Shown one piece after another: positions 5,276 to 42,797 of a DNA stretch of 64,000 bases. Source of the DNA: an uncultured Gammaproteobacteria bacterium. GTDB lineage: Bacteria > Patescibacteriota > Patescibacteriia > SG8-24. Made by a program: the position numbers and the translations under genes. The notes under the pieces were generated by a model. That model had not been told where the DNA came from, ran no database searches, and saw only the letters and a program-made list of their open reading frames with translations. Each line of letters begins with the position of its first letter. The first letter of the stretch is position 1. The stretch covers positions 12,389-76,388 of the forward strand of contig CAYOXM010000004.1 of NCBI GenBank assembly GCA_964407925.1, read 5' to 3'.

Positions 5276-7431
<2,156 letters not shown>

Positions 7432-8310
7432 CTATGGACAGCTGATGGTACCGCTCTTCACGATGGAACATTCGCTGAACACGACGAAATCGTATACTCC
7501 CGAAAGCGGCGTCTGCCGCGGCAGGGTGATGAGCAGCTTCTGCTCCACACCGGCGAACGTGCCGCGACTGTCGACTTTGACGCGACCGGGGAGGTTCACC
7601 GGCGCGTTCCCCGCGTCGTACCCGCGGATCTGCACGTTCTCGAGCGCCCCCTTTCGGGCGACGAGCCTGATGCGGTACAGCTTGTCCGGCGCCGCGACAG
7701 GGAGCACGGCGGTACCGCCGACGTACTGGTTCACGCCGATGGCCACGTTCGCCGCGTTGAGCGGGTCCCACGCGCCTCCGGGCTGCCAGCCGATGAGCGT
7801 CGCGCCCAGTACCGTACAGCCGGAGCAGGCATCGGTCCACGTCACCTCGACTTTGGCCACGTTCGCGCTCGCCTGCGTATCGGGATTGAAGAGCGCGATT
7901 TCCGTGAAGGAATCCTCGAGGATGGTCCCCGCGTAAATGACGCTCTCCTTGTCGTCGACCGACCGCTTCCATGTCGCGTTGTTGGTGAGGGCGGTGGCGC
8001 TGCTCACCGACGACGGCAGCGTGCCGGTCCGCCGCGCCTTGAACAGGGCGTCTTCCGCGCCGCTTTCGGCCGCGTAGTACGCGACGATGGCGCTGTCGAT
8101 GACGCGGGTCTGCTGGAGCGAACTCAGGATGAGCGAACCCAGACCGACGGACGATATGACGACCGACGACATGACGATGAGCGCCATGAGCAGGACGGTG
8201 CCACGGGAGTCGAAGGCGGAGGGTCGAGAGTGGTGAGTCTCGCGCGCCGAACCTCGCCCCGCGAAAGGACGTTCCACTTTCCACTTTCCGCTTTCCACTG
8301 GACGTACCAT
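7432..8310 (-). CDS. PilX-like minor pilin / pilus-associated protein (PilX_N-type hydrophobic N-terminus); start uncertain
   Basis: ORF 7432..8592; hydrophobic segment 'SRGTVLLMALIVMSSVVISSVGLG' resembles the PilX N-terminal domain. Last gene of the pilin/pseudopilin run. Confidence 0.55.
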   Translation of the reverse strand: MVRPVESGKWKVERPFAGRGSARETHHSRPSAFDSRGTVLLMALIVMSSVVISSVGLGSLILSSLQQTRVIDSAIVAYYAAESGAEDALFKARRTGTLPSSVSSATALTNNATWKRSVDDKESVIYAGTILEDSFTEIALFNPDTQASANVAKVEVTWTDACSGCTVLGATLIGWQPGGAWDPLNAANVAIGVNQYVGGTAVLPVAAPDKLYRIRLVARKGALENVQIRGYDAGNAPVNLPGRVKVDSRGTFAGVEQKLLITLPRQTPLSGVYDFVVFSECSIVKSGTISCP

Positions 8311-8312
8311 AG

Positions 8313-8939
8313 CTATCTCTTGTATTTCCTGTTCGTCGCCGTCGTCTGGAGGTAAACGACGGAACGCTCGGCCTGCCGCTCCGCCGAGCTTTCGAGCATC
8401 AGGACGGCGGTCACGCGCGGCTGGAGGTTGGCGGCATACGTTCCCGTGTTCGGATCGAACGCGTTCGGATCGGTCACGGGACCGATGTAGAACTTCACGT
8501 TGTCCACCTTCACGCCCTTCGGGGTGATCGGCGCCGGCGTTCCCGTGCCGACGGTCACGAGCAGGCACGGCCTGCTGAGCGTGTCCGCGCAATTCGACTC
8601 GTTGCCGGAGTCGCTCACGTGGAAACGAAGCTTCGTGTTCGTGCTGTCGATGAGCGCGAGTTCCCCCTCCGGGACGCCGATGGCGGTTCCGCGCGAAACG
8701 TAATACGCGTAATCGAGCGTCCCGGTGCGCACCTCGCGGACGATCGCCTCCATGGTGAACCGCGCGTCCGCCTGGACGCGTTCCAGGCCGAACATCTTGC
8801 GCTGCGACTTGTTGGCGAGCAGGAAGATGTCCGACGCCGCGACGACGACGGTCGAGAAGATGCCGAGGACGACGAGCAGCTCCATCAGCGTGAAGCCGCG
8901 CGCCGCCGCGATTTTCCGCGCATGGACGGTCCTCCGCAT
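8313..8939 (-). CDS. type IV pilin-like minor pilin (pseudopilin) with class III signal peptide
   Basis: N-terminus MRRTVHARKIAAARG|FTLMELLVVLGIFS: G-1, F+1, E+5 prepilin peptidase motif. Adjacent to the upstream pseudopilin stop. Confidence 0.8.
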   Translation of the reverse strand: MRRTVHARKIAAARGFTLMELLVVLGIFSTVVVAASDIFLLANKSQRKMFGLERVQADARFTMEAIVREVRTGTLDYAYYVSRGTAIGVPEGELALIDSTNTKLRFHVSDSGNESNCADTLSRPCLLVTVGTGTPAPITPKGVKVDNVKFYIGPVTDPNAFDPNTGTYAANLQPRVTAVLMLESSAERQAERSVVYLQTTATNRKYKR

Positions 8940-8940
8940 A

Positions 8941-9615
8941 TCAGCGCCAATTGAACATCCGCTCTTCGACATCGAGCGTGTGCACGCGGCCGGCGACGGC
9001 CCAGCGCATCTTCGAGGTCACGCGCATGCCGATCTTCTCGGCCGCGCCGCAACCGGCGCCGCTCGTCACGATGGTGTAGCCGCCCGCGCCGTTGTCGCAC
9101 AGGGGGTCGGTGACGATCAGCCGGCTGAACCCCGAGACTACGGTACCCGCGGGCTGCGCGGCAGCCTGGACGAACAACCCGACGGTGGCGCCGCCGCCGC
9201 CCGTGGTGTAACGGTACACGCGCGCCGCGTTCGCGGTGATGACGTTCGCGGCCGCGTAGTTGACCGACCACGCGTTCGTCGACGGCGAAAATTCGGCAAT
9301 GCCCGTGTAATCGGTGCCGTTGTACAGCCCGCTGTCGAACTGCTGGCCCGCCAGCCAGTTCGAGTCGCGTATCGCGCGCACCGCCTCGATGCCTTCGCGC
9401 GCCAAATTGCCGGCCATGATGCTCGCCTCGCTCTCCTTTTCGGCCTTGATGGTCCCCGCGACCAGCGTGAGCGCGGACGACACCGCCGTCACGATGATGC
9501 CCGTCGCGATGATCGCCTCGAGCATGCTCTGCCCCCTTTGGCGAAGTCCGCGACCGCGGCGCGGCCGATTGCGCTCCGGCAGGGCGTTGTCCGAAAACGT
9601 CGCGGCGTGAGGCAT
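8941..9615 (-). CDS. type IV pilin-like minor pilin (pseudopilin)
   Basis: N-terminus ...RQRG|QSMLEAIIATGIIVTAV with E+5, followed by a hydrophobic helix. Confidence 0.75.
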   Translation of the reverse strand: MPHAATFSDNALPERNRPRRGRGLRQRGQSMLEAIIATGIIVTAVSSALTLVAGTIKAEKESEASIMAGNLAREGIEAVRAIRDSNWLAGQQFDSGLYNGTDYTGIAEFSPSTNAWSVNYAAANVITANAARVYRYTTGGGGATVGLFVQAAAQPAGTVVSGFSRLIVTDPLCDNGAGGYTIVTSGAGCGAAEKIGMRVTSKMRWAVAGRVHTLDVEERMFNWR

Positions 9616-23007: not shown

Positions 23008-24674
23008 GGTTTTTTGGTCACGTCGCCCGTCGCCCCGCAGCACAGGTCGCCGGACTGCGCGCCGGGGGAGAAGCAGTCGTCGGTTCCGCTCGCGTTATAC
23101 TTCGCCGCGCTCGTGCAGTCGCAATCGAAGTACCCGTCGTTGGCGTCGCCGTAGCCGCACTCGAGCCCGTCGACGATCTGATGGAGCGCGGGCTGGGAAA
23201 TCGTCCCCTGCCGCGTGCAGCACAGCGTCCCGCTCCCGAGCACGTAGGCGGGATCGGAGCAATCGATGATGCCGTCGCCCGCCTGACCCCAGGTGCACCG
23301 CGTGCGCGGCAGCGTCTGGCCCGAACACTGGTAGGACACGCCCTTGCAATAACGGTCAGCACAGTCGACGTACCCGTTCCCGTCGTTGTCGATCGTGTCG
23401 GCGCAGTTGCCCTCGACGGGAATGCCGCGCCGCATCGCGAGCGCGAACGACGCGTCGCCGGTGAAGTCGCACTGCGCGGCGTTCTTGAAGTAGTTGTCGG
23501 GAAAACCCGCGTTGCACTTGATGGCGAGATACTGGTCCTGCTGGGCGTCGAGGCCGGTCCAGGTGTTGCCGTGCGCGAATACCGGCTTGCGCGACGTCGT
23601 GGCGTCGATGATTTCGCGGCACTTGCCCGCGACTTCGTCGCAAATCTCCGTTCCCGCGGCGCATTGCGCGTCCGAAACGCAGGCCGACCCGTTCGCGTAC
23701 CCGGCGATGAGGCATTTGTTCAGGTACCAGAGGCTGTTCTGCTGGATGTTGTCCGCCGCGACCACCGTGTAGTCGAGCGTCGTGGTGCTGCCGCGCACGG
23801 TCGAGGTCATGACCTTGTTCACGATGCGCTTCGACGCGTCAGGGAGCAGGATCTCGCATTCCAGAAACTGATTTACGGCGGCGGAAAAACCCTGGAAGGT
23901 CACGGACATCTTGTTCCGGTGGGTGCCGGGGTACGTGCACGTCCCCGCGACGGTATCGCACTTGAGGAGCGGCGGCGTCGTGCAGTTCGCGTCGCTCACG
24001 CACGGCGGCATCGCCGTCGCGGTCGGTTCGTATATGCCCTCGGGACGCCGGACGGTGCCGAGGTCCGCAAGCACCCACGACGTGTTGGCGATACTGAAAT
24101 CGATCCAACCAATGCCGGTGCCGTCGGAATTGCCGCTCCACGCCCAGTGGTCGCCCGCCGCGCCTTTGGTGAAGTTGCCGTTCACGTTGTTGAGCACGAC
24201 GTGGTAATTGGAGGTCACGCAGTCGTCCGCGCCGACGTCTTTGTCGCAATTCAGCGAAATCCAGCCGTTCGCGCCGAGACTGACCACTTGCGCCCATCCC
24301 CAGAACTGATCCTGTTTGGCGTTGAACGTGCCGCGGTACTGCGCGTACGGCGCGCCGCCCTCCGGCGTCGTGCCCGTGCAGGTCGTGCCGAAGCAGATCC
24401 ACCCCATCGTTTCCGACCACGCCCAGCCGGTGAGGTCGCCGCGATCGGGGAAGCCGGGGGCGTTATCGATTGCCAAACCGTAATCCGCCGTCGCACAAGT
24501 AGCGTCGTTCGTGCAGTTGAGCGAGACCCAACCGATGGTTCCCGACCACGCCCAGCCGGTGACGTTGTCGGAGGTACCGGCGAACGCGCCTTGCGCGGCA
24601 AAAAAAACTCCGGCGGTAACGCCCAGCATTACCGAAAAAAATCGTATGGCGGCTCCCTTAAAAATGGGTCCCAT
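23004..24674 (-). CDS. secreted repeat protein (556 aa) with 4x GWAWS...GWI(S/D)(L/F) repeats and one MopE-like motif
   Basis: Start MGPIFKGAAIRFFSVMLGVTAGVFFAAQGAFA (signal peptide). Repeats TGWAWSGTIGWVSLNC, TGWAWSETMGWICFG, FWGWAQVVSLGANGWISLNC, DHWAWSGNSDGTGIGWIDFS; CADTIDNDGNGYVDCADRYC. Stop overlaps the giant-protein start (ATGA). Confidence 0.75.
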   Translation of the reverse strand: MGPIFKGAAIRFFSVMLGVTAGVFFAAQGAFAGTSDNVTGWAWSGTIGWVSLNCTNDATCATADYGLAIDNAPGFPDRGDLTGWAWSETMGWICFGTTCTGTTPEGGAPYAQYRGTFNAKQDQFWGWAQVVSLGANGWISLNCDKDVGADDCVTSNYHVVLNNVNGNFTKGAAGDHWAWSGNSDGTGIGWIDFSIANTSWVLADLGTVRRPEGIYEPTATAMPPCVSDANCTTPPLLKCDTVAGTCTYPGTHRNKMSVTFQGFSAAVNQFLECEILLPDASKRIVNKVMTSTVRGSTTTLDYTVVAADNIQQNSLWYLNKCLIAGYANGSACVSDAQCAAGTEICDEVAGKCREIIDATTSRKPVFAHGNTWTGLDAQQDQYLAIKCNAGFPDNYFKNAAQCDFTGDASFALAMRRGIPVEGNCADTIDNDGNGYVDCADRYCKGVSYQCSGQTLPRTRCTWGQAGDGIIDCSDPAYVLGSGTLCCTRQGTISQPALHQIVDGLECGYGDANDGYFDCDCTSAAKYNASGTDDCFSPGAQSGDLCCGATGDVTKKP

Positions 24675-24691
24675 ACTCGTGCTTGAGTATA
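24675..24691 (-). promoter_or_regulatory. TATACT -10 box 11 nt upstream of the GWAWS-repeat protein ATG (leaderless or short-leader transcript?)
   Basis: Minus strand ...TTTTTCGTGCTATACTCAAGCACGAGT-ATG; no SD. Confidence 0.35.
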
Positions 24692-25153: not shown

Positions 25154-25245
25154 TGGCTGAGGTTCAGAGCTTGAGGGTTCAGAGGTCAAAGGTTTACACG
25201 CTCTAACCTTTGAAGCTCTGAAACTCTACCCTTTTCTTCCGTCTG
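25154..25245 (-). repeat. intergenic imperfect-palindrome element B, abutting rnhA ATG and containing the recJ stop codon
   Basis: Plus strand: GAGGTTCAGAGCTTGAGGGTTCAGAGGTCAAAGGTT-tacacgctct-AACCTTTGAAGCTCTGAAACTCTACCCTTTTC. Long imperfect hairpin; recJ reads through it, and the TGA stop lies in AGGTCAAAGG. Confidence 0.7.
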
Positions 25246-33071: not shown

Positions 33072-34424
33072 TCACATGAATACGGAGGCGAGCCCGAGGA
33101 AGACGAAGAAGCCGCAGCAATCGGTGAGCGTCGTGACGAAAACGGTCGAAGCGAGCGCGGGATCGATGCGCATGCGCTTCATGATGACGGGGACCGCGAC
33201 GCCGCCGAGCCCGGCGACGAGAAGGTTGGCGGTCATGGCAACGAGGATGACGCCGGCGAGGCGGGCGTTGCCCGTCCACGCGTAGGCGATGCCGCCCATG
33301 ATGACGCCGTTCGCGAGGCCGTTCAGCGTCCCGGCGGCGACCTGCTTCGCGACGGCATGGAGGGTGTTCAGGTGCCGAAGCTCGCCGAGCGCGATCGCGC
33401 GGACGACGACGCCGAGCGTCTGCGTCGCGGCGTTGCCGCCCATCCCCGCGATGATCGGCATGTAGGCGGCGAGGATGACGATGCGCTGGATGGTGTCCTC
33501 GAACAGGCTCACGACCCCGGCGGCGAGCACGGCCGTCGCGAGGTTGACGATGAGCCACGGGAGACGCCTGCGGACGGTGAGGAGCACGGGATCGCTGATG
33601 CGATCGTCCTCGTCCACGCCGGTGAGTCGGGAGATGTCTTCCGCGTACTCCTTCTCCATGACCTCGAAAATGTCGTCGGCGGTCACGATGCCGAGCACGC
33701 GCCCCTTGGGCCCGACGACCGGGAGCTCGATGGCGTTATGCTCGTCGAACACCTGCGCCATCTCCTCCTGGTCCATCGTCGGCGGCACGCTCACGACGGC
33801 GGCGTTCATGAGGTCGCCGAGTTTCGCGTCGGCCGCGGCGGTGAGGAGCCGCATGAGCGGCAGCGTGCCGACGAGCGCGTCCTTGTCGTCGGTGACGTAC
33901 ACCTGATGCGACTTCGGTTTCGTCGCCGACTCGCGCGCGATCTGCCGGCGCGCCTCGTCGACGGTGGCGTCCGCGCGGATGCGGAACGCCTCATGCTTCA
34001 TGCGACCGCCGGCGGTCTCCTCGCCGAAAACGAGCAGCGGCATGAGGCCGTGCGGGTCGTTTTTCCTGAGCTCCGCGATGACGCGGTCGCGCTGCCCGTC
34101 CTTGAGCAGCTGAATGAGGTCGACGGCGTCGTCGGATTCGGCCGCGTCGATCATCGCGGCCACTTCCGCCTGCGAAAGCGCGGGGAGCACCGCGTCCTGC
34201 GAGTACTCGCTGAGCTTCAGGAGGACGCGGGAATGCCGCTCCGCGGGGAGCCCCTTGAACATCCTGCGTTTCTCGTGGACGGACAGCGAATCAACGACGT
34301 GGATGACGTCCTCGTCGCCCATCTTCGCGAGCAGTTCGCGGAGCAGCGCGTCCTGGTTGCGGAACAGCATCTCCCTCGCGCGGTCGGCGAACCCCTTCCA
34401 ATTCAGCATCGTCGGTAACGGCAT
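33072..34424 (-). CDS. mgtE: magnesium transporter MgtE
   Basis: 450 aa; N domain, tandem CBS domains, C-terminal 5-TM MgtE channel domain (AYMPIIAGMGGNAATQTL). Confidence 0.9.
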   Translation of the reverse strand: MPLPTMLNWKGFADRAREMLFRNQDALLRELLAKMGDEDVIHVVDSLSVHEKRRMFKGLPAERHSRVLLKLSEYSQDAVLPALSQAEVAAMIDAAESDDAVDLIQLLKDGQRDRVIAELRKNDPHGLMPLLVFGEETAGGRMKHEAFRIRADATVDEARRQIARESATKPKSHQVYVTDDKDALVGTLPLMRLLTAAADAKLGDLMNAAVVSVPPTMDQEEMAQVFDEHNAIELPVVGPKGRVLGIVTADDIFEVMEKEYAEDISRLTGVDEDDRISDPVLLTVRRRLPWLIVNLATAVLAAGVVSLFEDTIQRIVILAAYMPIIAGMGGNAATQTLGVVVRAIALGELRHLNTLHAVAKQVAAGTLNGLANGVIMGGIAYAWTGNARLAGVILVAMTANLLVAGLGGVAVPVIMKRMRIDPALASTVFVTTLTDCCGFFVFLGLASVFM

Positions 34425-41089: not shown

Positions 41090-41950
41090 ATGGCTGATAA
41101 ACTCAAAAAATCCGGCCTCGCCGTTCTCGTCGGGCGATCGAACGTGGGCAAGTCCACGCTCCTCAACTCGCTCGTCGGCACCAAGGTCGCCATCACGACG
41201 CCCAAGCCGCAGACCACGCGGCATATCATCCAAGGCGTCGTCCACGACCCGCGCGGGCAGGTCGTCTTCGTCGACACTCCCGGCATCTTCACGCGCATCC
41301 CCGATACGCTGACGGCGAAGCTGAACGAGAAGGCGAAGGACGCCCTCGACGGCATCGACGTCCTGCTGTACGTCGTCGATCCCACGCGCCACGTCGGCGA
41401 CGAGGAGAAGGCAGTCCACCGCCTCGTGCGGAACGCGACGGTTCCGAAAATCCTCGTCATCAACAAGAGCGACCTGAAGGGCCCCTACGCCGACGAATAT
41501 CGGGCATGGGAGGAAGAGTTCGACGAGGTCATCGAAATCTCCGCGCTCAATCGCCGCAACCTGAAGGCGCTCGTCGACGCGATCTTCGGCTACCTGAAAG
41601 AGGGTGAGCCGCTCTACCCGCCGGACCAGATTTCCGGCGTCGAAAACCGGTTCTGGCTCGAGGAGCTTTTCCGCGAAAAGGTGTTCATGAAGATGCACGA
41701 GGAAATCCCCTACACCACCGCCGTGCACGTGAGCGAAGTCGCGGCGCGCGACAACGGCGTGACGTACGTCCGCGCGACGATCGTCACGACGTCGCCGCGA
41801 TACAAAAAGATGCTCATCGGCGCCGGCGCGCGGACCGTCAAGGACATCGGCCGGGCCGTGCGCAAGGAACTCGAGGAGGTCAGCGGAAAAAAATATTTCA
41901 TCGACCTCGACGTGCAGGTCGAAGAGCGCTGGCAGGAACGGTTCGAATGA
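41090..41950 (+). CDS. era: GTPase Era
   Basis: 286 aa; G1 'GRSNVGKSTL', 'DTPG', 'NKSD', C-terminal KH domain. Confidence 0.95.
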   Translation: MADKLKKSGLAVLVGRSNVGKSTLLNSLVGTKVAITTPKPQTTRHIIQGVVHDPRGQVVFVDTPGIFTRIPDTLTAKLNEKAKDALDGIDVLLYVVDPTRHVGDEEKAVHRLVRNATVPKILVINKSDLKGPYADEYRAWEEEFDEVIEISALNRRNLKALVDAIFGYLKEGEPLYPPDQISGVENRFWLEELFREKVFMKMHEEIPYTTAVHVSEVAARDNGVTYVRATIVTTSPRYKKMLIGAGARTVKDIGRAVRKELEEVSGKKYFIDLDVQVEERWQERFE

Positions 41951-42071
41951 TGGAGAGGTTGAAAGGTTGAGAGTTAATAAGGTTAAAAGACCCGATTGAA
42001 TTTCGCTTACCTCTCAACCTTTTAACCTTTCAACCTTTTAACCTTGCTGCCGCCTGTTATACTGCCCCCGT
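41951..42071 (+). repeat. intergenic imperfect-palindrome element C between era and the LOG gene
   Basis: GGAGAGGTTGAAAGGTTGAGAGTTAATAAGGTTAAAAG ... CTTACCTCTCAACCTTTTAACCTTTCAACCTTTTAACCTTG, then TGTTATACT (extended -10-like) 8 nt before the ATG. Confidence 0.7.
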
Positions 42072-42797
42072 ATGTCCATCATCAAGAAGCATTCCGACGA
42101 GCACAAGCCGCGGCTGGACGAGGAGATGAAGAAAGTCGACGTCTGCGCGTCGCCGTATACCGACTTCCGCTCCGGCGCGAGTTGGCGCATCTTCCGCATC
42201 ATGGCGGAATTCATCGAAGGGTTCGAATTTCTCGCCGACCTCAAGAAGGAAGTCTCGATTTTCGGCTCGGCGCGCTCGAAGCCGACCGACCACTGGTACA
42301 AGGAATCGCGCAAGCTCGGCACGCTGCTCGGCCGCGCCGGATTCACGATGATCACGGGGGGCGGTCCGGGCATCATGGAAGCGGCGAACCGCGGCGCCGT
42401 GGAGGCCGGGGCGGTGTCGGTCGGACTGAACATCGAACTCCCCCAGGAGCAGCGGGTCAACCGCTACGTCCGCAAACCGAAGAACTTCCATTATTTCTTC
42501 ACGCGAAAGGTGATGCTGTCGGTGTCGTCGCAGGCCTACATCTTCTTCCCCGGCGGCTTCGGCACGATGGACGAGTTCATGGAACTCATCACGCTCATAC
42601 AGACGAAGAAGATGTGCCCCATCCCCCTCGTCCTCGTCGGCAAGGAGTACTGGACGGGACTCTTCACGTGGGTGAAGCGGGCGATGATCGACGAGGGGTA
42701 CATTTCCGCCGAGGACCTCAACCTGTTCAAAATCGTCGATACCGCCGAGGAGGCGTTCGACATCGTGAAAGACTCGCAGGAACGCGCGTACTTCTAG
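42072..42797 (+). CDS. LOG-family (TIGR00730) protein, putative cytokinin/nucleotide riboside 5'-monophosphate phosphoribohydrolase
   Basis: 241 aa; 'ITGGGPGIMEAANRGA' and 'FPGGFGTMDEF' LOG motifs. Confidence 0.85.
   Translation: MSIIKKHSDEHKPRLDEEMKKVDVCASPYTDFRSGASWRIFRIMAEFIEGFEFLADLKKEVSIFGSARSKPTDHWYKESRKLGTLLGRAGFTMITGGGPGIMEAANRGAVEAGAVSVGLNIELPQEQRVNRYVRKPKNFHYFFTRKVMLSVSSQAYIFFPGGFGTMDEFMELITLIQTKKMCPIPLVLVGKEYWTGLFTWVKRAMIDEGYISAEDLNLFKIVDTAEEAFDIVKDSQERAYF

Follow-up and report, generated by a model that had tools for sequence, protein, structure and literature searches.

An octamer-repeat hairpin and a predicted leaderless start between era and a LOG-family gene in a high-GC member of the Patescibacteria

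Promoters of the extended -10 (TGn) type, from which leaderless mRNAs are transcribed, are known from Actinobacteria and Deinococcus. Intergenic palindromes have been described as the REP/BIME sequences of enterobacteria, where the malE-malF intercistronic hairpin stabilises the upstream mRNA, and as the Correia elements of Neisseria, while the attC sites of integrons form imperfect hairpins of 60-140 nt whose arms carry GTTRRRY- and RYYYAAC-like motifs. To our knowledge, the gene expression signals of the Patescibacteria (CPR), which have few cultured members, are almost unstudied. Our literature searches found no report of leaderless transcripts for these bacteria and nothing on octamer-repeat terminators, and the repeat sequences described below appear in no paper searched. 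For M. tuberculosis, a TANNNT box centred 7-12 bp upstream of the transcription start site (TSS) has been reported, a transcript being defined as leaderless when its TSS lies at most 5 bp from the start codon (Cortes et al. 2013, PMC3898074).

Here, we analysed a 64-kb stretch of DNA (the window) from an uncultured, ultra-small bacterium. Its G+C content is about 65%, and the best matches to its LOG, Era and RNase H proteins come from Patescibacteria, chiefly from records under the names Uhrbacteria or Magasanikbacteria. Between the gene for GTPase Era and a gene of the LOG/TIGR00730 family lies an imperfect palindrome of about 95 nt, which we call element C, with GAAAGGTT-type octamers on its 5′ side and AACCTTTY-type octamers on its 3′ side. 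The best overall explanation of this locus, to which we assign a probability of roughly 0.55, is that LOG would be expressed as a leaderless mRNA from a conserved extended -10 promoter, and that element C, gained separately, would serve era as a terminator or 3′-end hairpin. Downstream of the era stop codon, the order is element C, the 9-nt gctgccgcc, the box TGtTATACT, the 8-nt gcccccgt and the LOG ATG, and the individual features are as follows.

41090-41950, plus strand: era (GTPase Era; Pfam MMR_HSR1 and KH_2), stop codon TGA at 41948-41950.
41952-41989, plus strand: 5′ purine-rich arm of element C, GAGAGGTT GAAAGGTT GAGAGTTA ATAAGGTT AAAAG, that is GGAGAGGTTGAAAGGTTGAGAGTTAATAAGGTTAAAAG, with three AGGT cores (41956, 41964 and 41980).
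41990-42008, plus strand: loop or spacer of element C, 19 nt, acccgattgaatttcgctt.
42009-42045, plus strand: 3′ pyrimidine-rich arm of element C, ACCTCTCAACCTTTTAACCTTTCAACCTTTTAACCTT, with five ACCTYTYN units (TRF period 8, 90% matches).
42055-42063, plus strand: extended -10 of LOG, TGtTATACT (TGTTATACT), conserved in the relatives L001, L002, L003, L130, L132 and L133.
42064-42071, plus strand: 8-nt discriminator gcccccgt, with the TSS predicted at G42070 or A42072 from the usual -10-to-TSS spacing, which gives a leader of 0-2 nt.
42072-42797, plus strand: LOG/TIGR00730-family gene, ATG start without a Shine-Dalgarno sequence (SD); Pfam PF03641 and PF18306.

Element C spans 41951-42045 and comprises three AGGT units, the 19-nt loop and five ACCT units with a period of 8 nt, the ACCT cores following each other at strict 8-nt spacing (42009, 42017, 42025, 42033 and 42041). 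An earlier note on this DNA had reported three AGGT units followed by five ACCT units between era and LOG, with coordinates and counts that proved right; it had also described the element as fused to the extended -10, which is accurate as to adjacency and only approximate as to fusion, a 9-nt spacer (gctgccgcc) separating the last ACCTT from the TG. The repetition goes far beyond chance, with seven matches to ACCTNNNNACCT against 0.46 expected and five matches to AACCTTTNAACCTT against 0.00 expected. The arms are 79-81% complementary over 32-34 nt, and both this anatomy and the fold energies are direct readings of the sequence: the RNA of the element folds at -41.3 kcal/mol (z = -5.4), and the hairpin, which begins 2 nt past the era stop, at -37.4 kcal/mol, the last one or two 3′ units (42036-42045, UUUUAACCUU) being partnerless and single-stranded in the fold. 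As an inverted repeat, the element reads 'AGGT then ACCT' on either strand, and this order is silent on its orientation relative to LOG; the succession of an AGGT arm and an ACCT arm is a polarity inherent in the element and does not indicate how it is oriented with respect to a neighbouring gene. An Rfam search of the whole window returned zero matches at or above the gathering score, and a permissive search returned only sub-threshold matches to generic hairpins of the miRNA-precursor kind.

The box upstream of LOG has the composition of an extended -10 of the sigma-70 type, with TG one base 5′ of a hexamer that carries A at position 2 and T at position 6. It occupies 42055-42063, at just the distance of 8 nt from the ATG at 42072 that the earlier note had given, and the absence of an SD claimed there also holds, since none of GGAG, GAGG and AGGA occurs within 20 nt 5′ of the LOG ATG. 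Clear GGAGG-type SDs are used at other genes of the window (12147, 13503, 44719, 48015, 49393 and 60228), so that their absence is specific to LOG and the genes that start in the same manner; an AUG without an SD in a genome that otherwise uses SDs is what the sequence of a leaderless mRNA looks like. All three occurrences of TGNTATACT in the window, against 0.05 expected, lie 8-11 nt 5′ of a first ATG, namely those of LOG, of the GWAWS protein and of a 450-aa protein at 34424, and TATACT is found eight times against 1.4 expected. Within the window, TAnnnT stands 5-11 nt upstream of 6 of the 48 first ATGs, compared with 6 of the 341 internal ATGs (Fisher p = 0.0014). At the GWAWS gene, TATACT (24686-24691) is followed after 11 nt by the ATG at 24674, an arrangement whose coordinates had likewise been given correctly. 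Judged by the same pattern, four further minus-strand starts would be of the leaderless type: those at 34424 (TGtTATACT, 9 nt, ATG; the 450-aa protein), 43853 (TGgTATGAT, 6 nt, ATG; a DoxX-like membrane protein, just past a T7 terminator), 63571 (TATACT, 6 nt, ATG) and 26967 (TATGCT, 9 nt, ATG; recJ).

RNA polymerase would start 6-8 nt past TGtTATACT, at G42070 or A42072, with no need for a -35, and the resulting LOG mRNA, with its leader of 0-2 nt and its AUG without an SD, would take the leaderless route of translation. We infer both the TSS position and leaderless translation, the predicted leader of 0-2 nt following from the M. tuberculosis standard (PMC3898074) applied to the 8-nt distance. 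Because this distance exceeds the optimum by 1-2 nt, a leader of 2 nt and a truly leaderless 5′ end are equally likely.

The decisive evidence for the LOG promoter comes from comparative sequence analysis of the era-to-LOG region in seven independent relatives, among them L001, L002, L003, L130, L132 and L133, in which conservation of the promoter and absence of the element could be observed directly. In all seven, TGnTAYAMT is kept 5′ of a conserved MSII(K/R)K start. L003, L130 and L132 have 8 nt between box and ATG, L133 has 10 nt, and L001 and L002 have 19-20 nt; in none of the seven is there an SD upstream of LOG. The MSIIKK start is conserved at the DNA level, in contrast to the diverged sequence upstream of it, and era orthologues lie 5′ of LOG in L001, L002, L003 and L130. 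The extended -10 layout is also conserved at the gene 3′ of rnhA and at the DoxX-like gene. On this evidence, TGtTATACT is best described as a conserved extended -10 promoter that is separate from element C, and a LOG mRNA that is leaderless or has a 1-2-nt leader is a well-supported prediction of the comparison. The public LOG call in L130 (GCA_023246195.1, 291 aa; L130:2948-3120) begins 50 codons 5′ of the MSIIKK start, which in that genome sits 8 nt past TGgTATACT; the annotated start is probably wrong through neglect of the leaderless architecture.

The same comparison also bears on the element. In the closest relatives, L001 and L002 (96% and 91% LOG identity, respectively), the era-LOG spacer is only 33 nt long and consists of the stop, 4-5 nt, TGcTATACT, 19-20 nt and the ATG, with neither repeat nor hairpin. 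In L003, L130, L132 and L133, an ordinary terminator, made of a GC-rich hairpin and a T run, separates the upstream gene from the -10 box. As the promoter occurs without the element in L001 and L002, and ordinary terminators occur in the others, element C is to be read as a lineage-specific gain. It appears to have been acquired recently between the era stop and the LOG promoter, in the slot where relatives have either a terminator or nothing.

In the era transcript, element C would fold into a very stable hairpin that can close after each AACC, and each closure would then be followed by UUUU or UUUC. The successive nascent closure energies are -21.5, -29.8 and -37.4 kcal/mol, with the tails UUUUAACCU, UUUCAACCU and UUUUAACCU (UUUU, UUUC and UUUU), compared with only -5 to -16 kcal/mol, together with T runs, for the canonical terminators in the window. 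In the complete element, the two surplus 3′ units would stay unpaired as the U-rich tail UUUUAACCUUGC, which would explain the asymmetry of three versus five units as a hairpin plus U-rich tail on the era strand. The element would thus act as an iterated intrinsic terminator or as a protective hairpin at the 3′ end of era, and would insulate era from the LOG promoter, as ordinary terminators do in the relatives.

Such termination or stabilisation by the hairpin is something that we infer, and the resemblance to intrinsic terminators is partial. Like these, element C is a stable stem-loop directly 3′ of a stop codon, and a U-rich tail on the sense strand is present only in this copy, the one that precedes a promoter of its own, which supports the terminator role. 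A canonical terminator has a G+C-rich stem, a small loop and at least five U in 8 nt; the stem of element C is AU-rich with a large interior loop, its tail UUUUAACC has four U in the first 8 nt, and a terminator consensus scan of the window did not call it, so 'terminator-like' is the appropriate term, and not membership of the canonical class. Two further observations count against the role, namely that the genome has ordinary terminators elsewhere and that L001 and L002 do without any hairpin between era and LOG. From the sequence evidence as a whole, a lineage-specific terminator or 3′-end hairpin for era is the most likely identity of element C, and this functional claim is made with moderate confidence. 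Other functions were considered for the same DNA and set aside: the 3′ arm, which is C-rich and poor in G, is unlikely to be a Rho-utilisation site, as it is base-paired, and phase-variable promoter spacing was rejected because the array lies 5′ of the -35 position, where gain or loss of units leaves the sequence unchanged.

Three other hairpins of the window were compared with element C.

7349-7433, minus strand: element A, between the stop TAG (7434-7432) of a pseudopilin-like gene and the ATG of ligA (7348-7346).
25157-25236, minus strand: element B, with the recJ frame crossing the 5′ arm and loop and stopping at TGA (25188-25186) in the 3′ arm.
8199-8313, minus strand: GC-richer hairpin of GGAAAGY units, between the stop TAG (8315-8313) and the ATG at 8187 of pilin-operon genes.

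The stem of element A ends 4 nt 5′ of the ligA AUG, and its fold is weaker than the others (-20.5 kcal/mol; z = -1.7); the ligA relatives available for comparison were all matches of at most 64% identity. For element B, whose stem ends 1 nt before the rnhA ATG (25153-25151), the relatives are more telling. L124 (1060-1110), L125 and L127 have an ATGA overlap of recJ and rnhA instead of the element, whereas in the window (25154-25240) 44 nt of the recJ tail have been replaced by 86 nt of element B, which encodes a new 18-aa C-terminus of RecJ (TEEKGRVSELQRLERVNL) and leaves the SD-less rnhA start 35 nt past the recJ stop. Judging from these relatives, element B is lineage-specific and broke an ancestral ATGA gene overlap.

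In alignments of A, B and C the octamer units are common to all, a 23-nt run of units is common to A and C, and the loops and ends are unrelated. The idea that the three are copies of one mobile element was rejected for this lack of common ends and loops, which makes them a structural class and not a sequence family. Neither A nor B has a U tail on the sense strand, such as the U-rich one of C, and this fits a need for read-through, as no promoter lies between them and ligA or rnhA; the two would sit in operons as read-through intercistronic hairpins. A promoter for ligA or rnhA inside the 3′ arm was rejected, since neither A nor B has a suitably spaced TAnnnT. In the hairpin at 8199-8313, a GGAAAGT heptamer repeated four times (8272-8299) pairs with a downstream CT-rich stretch in the same purine-then-pyrimidine layout (-52 kcal/mol); with a fold z of only -1.6, its kinship with A, B and C is tentative.

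Nearly all confident genes between about 750 and 38800 of the window are on the minus strand; among them are a type IV pilus-like operon and the genes of two secreted proteins of very large size that carry CxDxxDNDxD and GWAWS repeats. A TGAT-ATG junction (stop TGA, one T, ATG) recurs at 9615, 34965, 35521 and 36266 on the minus strand, linking consecutive genes without an SD, which suggests frequent termination-reinitiation coupling in the source genome.

Hairpins of this build are not confined to the window. A scan of a genome collection with one genome per species for ACCTYTYNACCTYTYNACCTYT (three consecutive ACCTYTYN units) found at least 120 arrays (L004-L123), and the matches listed come from Bacteroidota (many of them Prevotella), Verrucomicrobiota, Lentisphaerota, Planctomycetota, Acidobacteriota, Burkholderiales, Cloacimonadota and a CPR genome of WWE3, T-rich units dominating among them. 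Many of the listed arrays, of which L039:5207-5580 is one example, share the two-arm layout of element C (L061:6880-7080, L032:7444-7550, L088:1944-2014 and L107). Where the flank was sufficient, in 114 listed arrays, a complementary arm was found upstream only in 39, downstream only in 2 and on both sides in 1, and this precedence of the purine arm (39 to 2) is the A-rich-then-U-rich polarity of terminators. By crude ORF calls, about 29 of 38 listed hairpins adjoin the 3′ end of a gene, often only a few nucleotides from the stop, and none of the 38 lies clearly between divergent genes. How the ACCT strand is oriented towards the following gene was discarded as a measure, since it has no meaning for an inverted repeat, and the single arrays listed have no consistent orientation. 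An Rfam search of 17 loci with similar hairpins returned nothing relevant.

A metagenome scan for the 23-nt run common to A and C led to a genome of 52% GC, represented by L128 and L129. Here, an octamer hairpin (L128:8701-8776, identical in L129:6481-6556) lies 3 nt past the mreB stop TAA, and 3 nt after its stem comes the SD-less ATG of mreC; a 25-nt run of units is common to this hairpin and element C. Octamer hairpins of the PVC group (Lentisphaera, Kiritimatiellae and others) have in common an inner segment, ttgctgttgtYcatgtg / gctgttgtccgcttgttg, at L008:620-716, in L107 (minus strand, upstream of 4527) and at L031:7330-7425, with at least four copies in one Lentisphaera MAG, and may form a genuine sequence family there.

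The cross-phylum polarity and the location at gene ends fit a terminator-derived or terminator-like class. A broader reading, which we regard as speculative and rather unlikely, extends this to all the hairpins: element C would be the local example of an undescribed cross-phylum type of gene-end hairpin (GAAAGGTT-type units, a loop and AACCTTTC-type units, purine 5′ and pyrimidine 3′), whose members would work as iterated 'accordion' terminators or, where they lack the U-rich tail and stand between a stop and an SD-less AUG (A, B and the mreB-mreC element of L128), as intercistronic hairpins that keep stop and start close to each other for re-initiation.

A serious rival to an era terminator or 3′-end hairpin regards element C and its sisters as palindromic DNA, selfish or neutral, that has no role at the site, whether it derives from a MITE- or REP-like insertion or from in-situ replication slippage and template-switch inverted duplication, and that would be tolerated because a hairpin between a stop and the next gene's signals does little harm. 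Such an origin, which we consider possible although on balance doubtful, accords with the absence of the elements from close relatives at both testable sites (C in L001 and L002; B in L124, L125 and L127), with the fact that L001 and L002 get by without any element between era and their LOG promoter, and with the presence of three to four copies in 64 kb against none in 34 kb of relatives. The unequal unit numbers of the two arms are as expected from slippage, and the 5′ arm of B is loosely similar to the ancestral Glu-rich recJ tail (EEKGRVSE versus EENATVEK), a hint of growth in place. A and B show that a hairpin of this build can persist at sites where termination would do damage, so a function need not be assumed for the family as a whole. 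However, while B and C do vary between presence and absence at orthologous sites in the manner of MITE or REP sequences, A, B and C have no consensus that includes termini. No conserved termini, common loop or target-site duplication was found, the last not being visible at the junctions of C or B in a window that is partly annotated for transposases, and pairwise alignments of A, B and C cover little besides the octamer units. Neutrality also leaves unexplained both the fixed purine-then-pyrimidine polarity across phyla (39 to 2 among the matches listed) and the restriction of a sense-strand U-rich tail to the copy that is followed by a promoter.

The earlier note had instead suggested a possible tie of the repeat family to promoter or start-site architecture, and the element could then be an AT-rich UP-like sequence or an operator array for a regulator of the extended -10. 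Its 3′ arm does lie at about -17 to -60 of the predicted start and is AT-rich in a genome of 65% GC, its last unit holds a weak -35-like TTTTAA (3/6 matches), and direct repeats of an octamer are conceivable binding sites for a protein. Nevertheless, the same promoter is present without the element in all relatives examined, the nearest ones included, while others have ordinary terminators at that site; A and B have no -10-like box between them and the following ATG; a period of 8 bp does not keep phase with the turns of the DNA helix; and the cross-phylum hairpins adjoin gene 3′ ends, with none clearly between divergent genes among the matches listed. We consequently think this architecture very improbable. 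What endures of the earlier interpretation is the leaderless start of LOG, as a prediction backed by a box conserved in seven relatives and the lack of an SD, together with predicted leaderless starts at some other genes, where the box is conserved at two further orthologous genes and TAnnnT is enriched (p = 0.0014); the repeat as a promoter component does not. Little credit can be given, too, to a translational role of the family, in which the hairpin would bring a stop and an SD-less AUG together, permit shunt-like re-initiation and block independent initiation. The arrangement of A, B and the mreB-mreC element of L128 (stop, 0-3 nt, hairpin, 1-4 nt, AUG, with no SD and no promoter) would suit such a device, and B has taken the place of a 4-nt ATGA coupling overlap, but the idea is inapplicable to C, where the next gene is served by a conserved promoter of its own at a distance of 27 nt, and closeness of stop and start is expected from insertion into an already tiny spacer.

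Under the preferred reading, a conserved promoter for a leaderless LOG mRNA and a separately gained hairpin at the end of era, a Uhrbacteria-like clade would routinely use extended -10 promoters 6-11 nt from the AUG, implying leaderless or near-leaderless mRNAs beside SD-led genes. Such an architecture bears on the annotation of start codons, as illustrated by the relative whose LOG was called 50 codons too long. The era-LOG spacer further indicates that the boundaries of transcription units can be rebuilt quickly, a terminator, nothing or a repeat-built hairpin being found at one site in close relatives. If octamer hairpins truly are a type of terminator or coupling device, they would provide a simple new annotation feature for terminators and operon structure.

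Set against the described systems, the promoter belongs to a known class of signals, met here in an unusual lineage, and the hairpin is an unusual variant of the palindromes found at gene ends. The LOG start resembles the leaderless promoters of M. tuberculosis (PMC3898074) in having TGnTAnnnT a few nucleotides 5′ of the AUG, no -35 consensus and no SD, and in recurring at several genes; it differs in that the host is a high-GC CPR bacterium, that the 8-11 nt are slightly more than the ~6 nt of an exactly leaderless transcript, and that the TSS is predicted here. As for the hairpin, units such as GTTGAAA and TTTCAAC resemble the motifs of integron attC sites, an identity that was rejected because the order of the arms is reversed (GTTRRR first and YYYAAC last) and there is no integrase or cassette array. 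With REP/BIME and Correia elements, the hairpins of the window have in common that they are multi-copy, imperfect intergenic palindromes past stops or within operons, variable in presence and apt to act at the RNA level as 3′ hairpins or terminators; in contrast to those families, their copies have no consensus past the octamer, show internal tandem periodicity, and revealed neither a duplicated target site nor a consensus of terminal repeats nor a transposase associated with them. Finally, intrinsic terminators, including bidirectional ones, share with element C a stem-loop right past the stop, an A-rich 5′ and a U-rich 3′ side and the slot that canonical terminators occupy in the relatives, whereas element C has a short, interrupted U tract (UUUUAACCUU) and an AU-rich stem of about 30 bp that is built of tandem 8-nt units and offers several points of closure.
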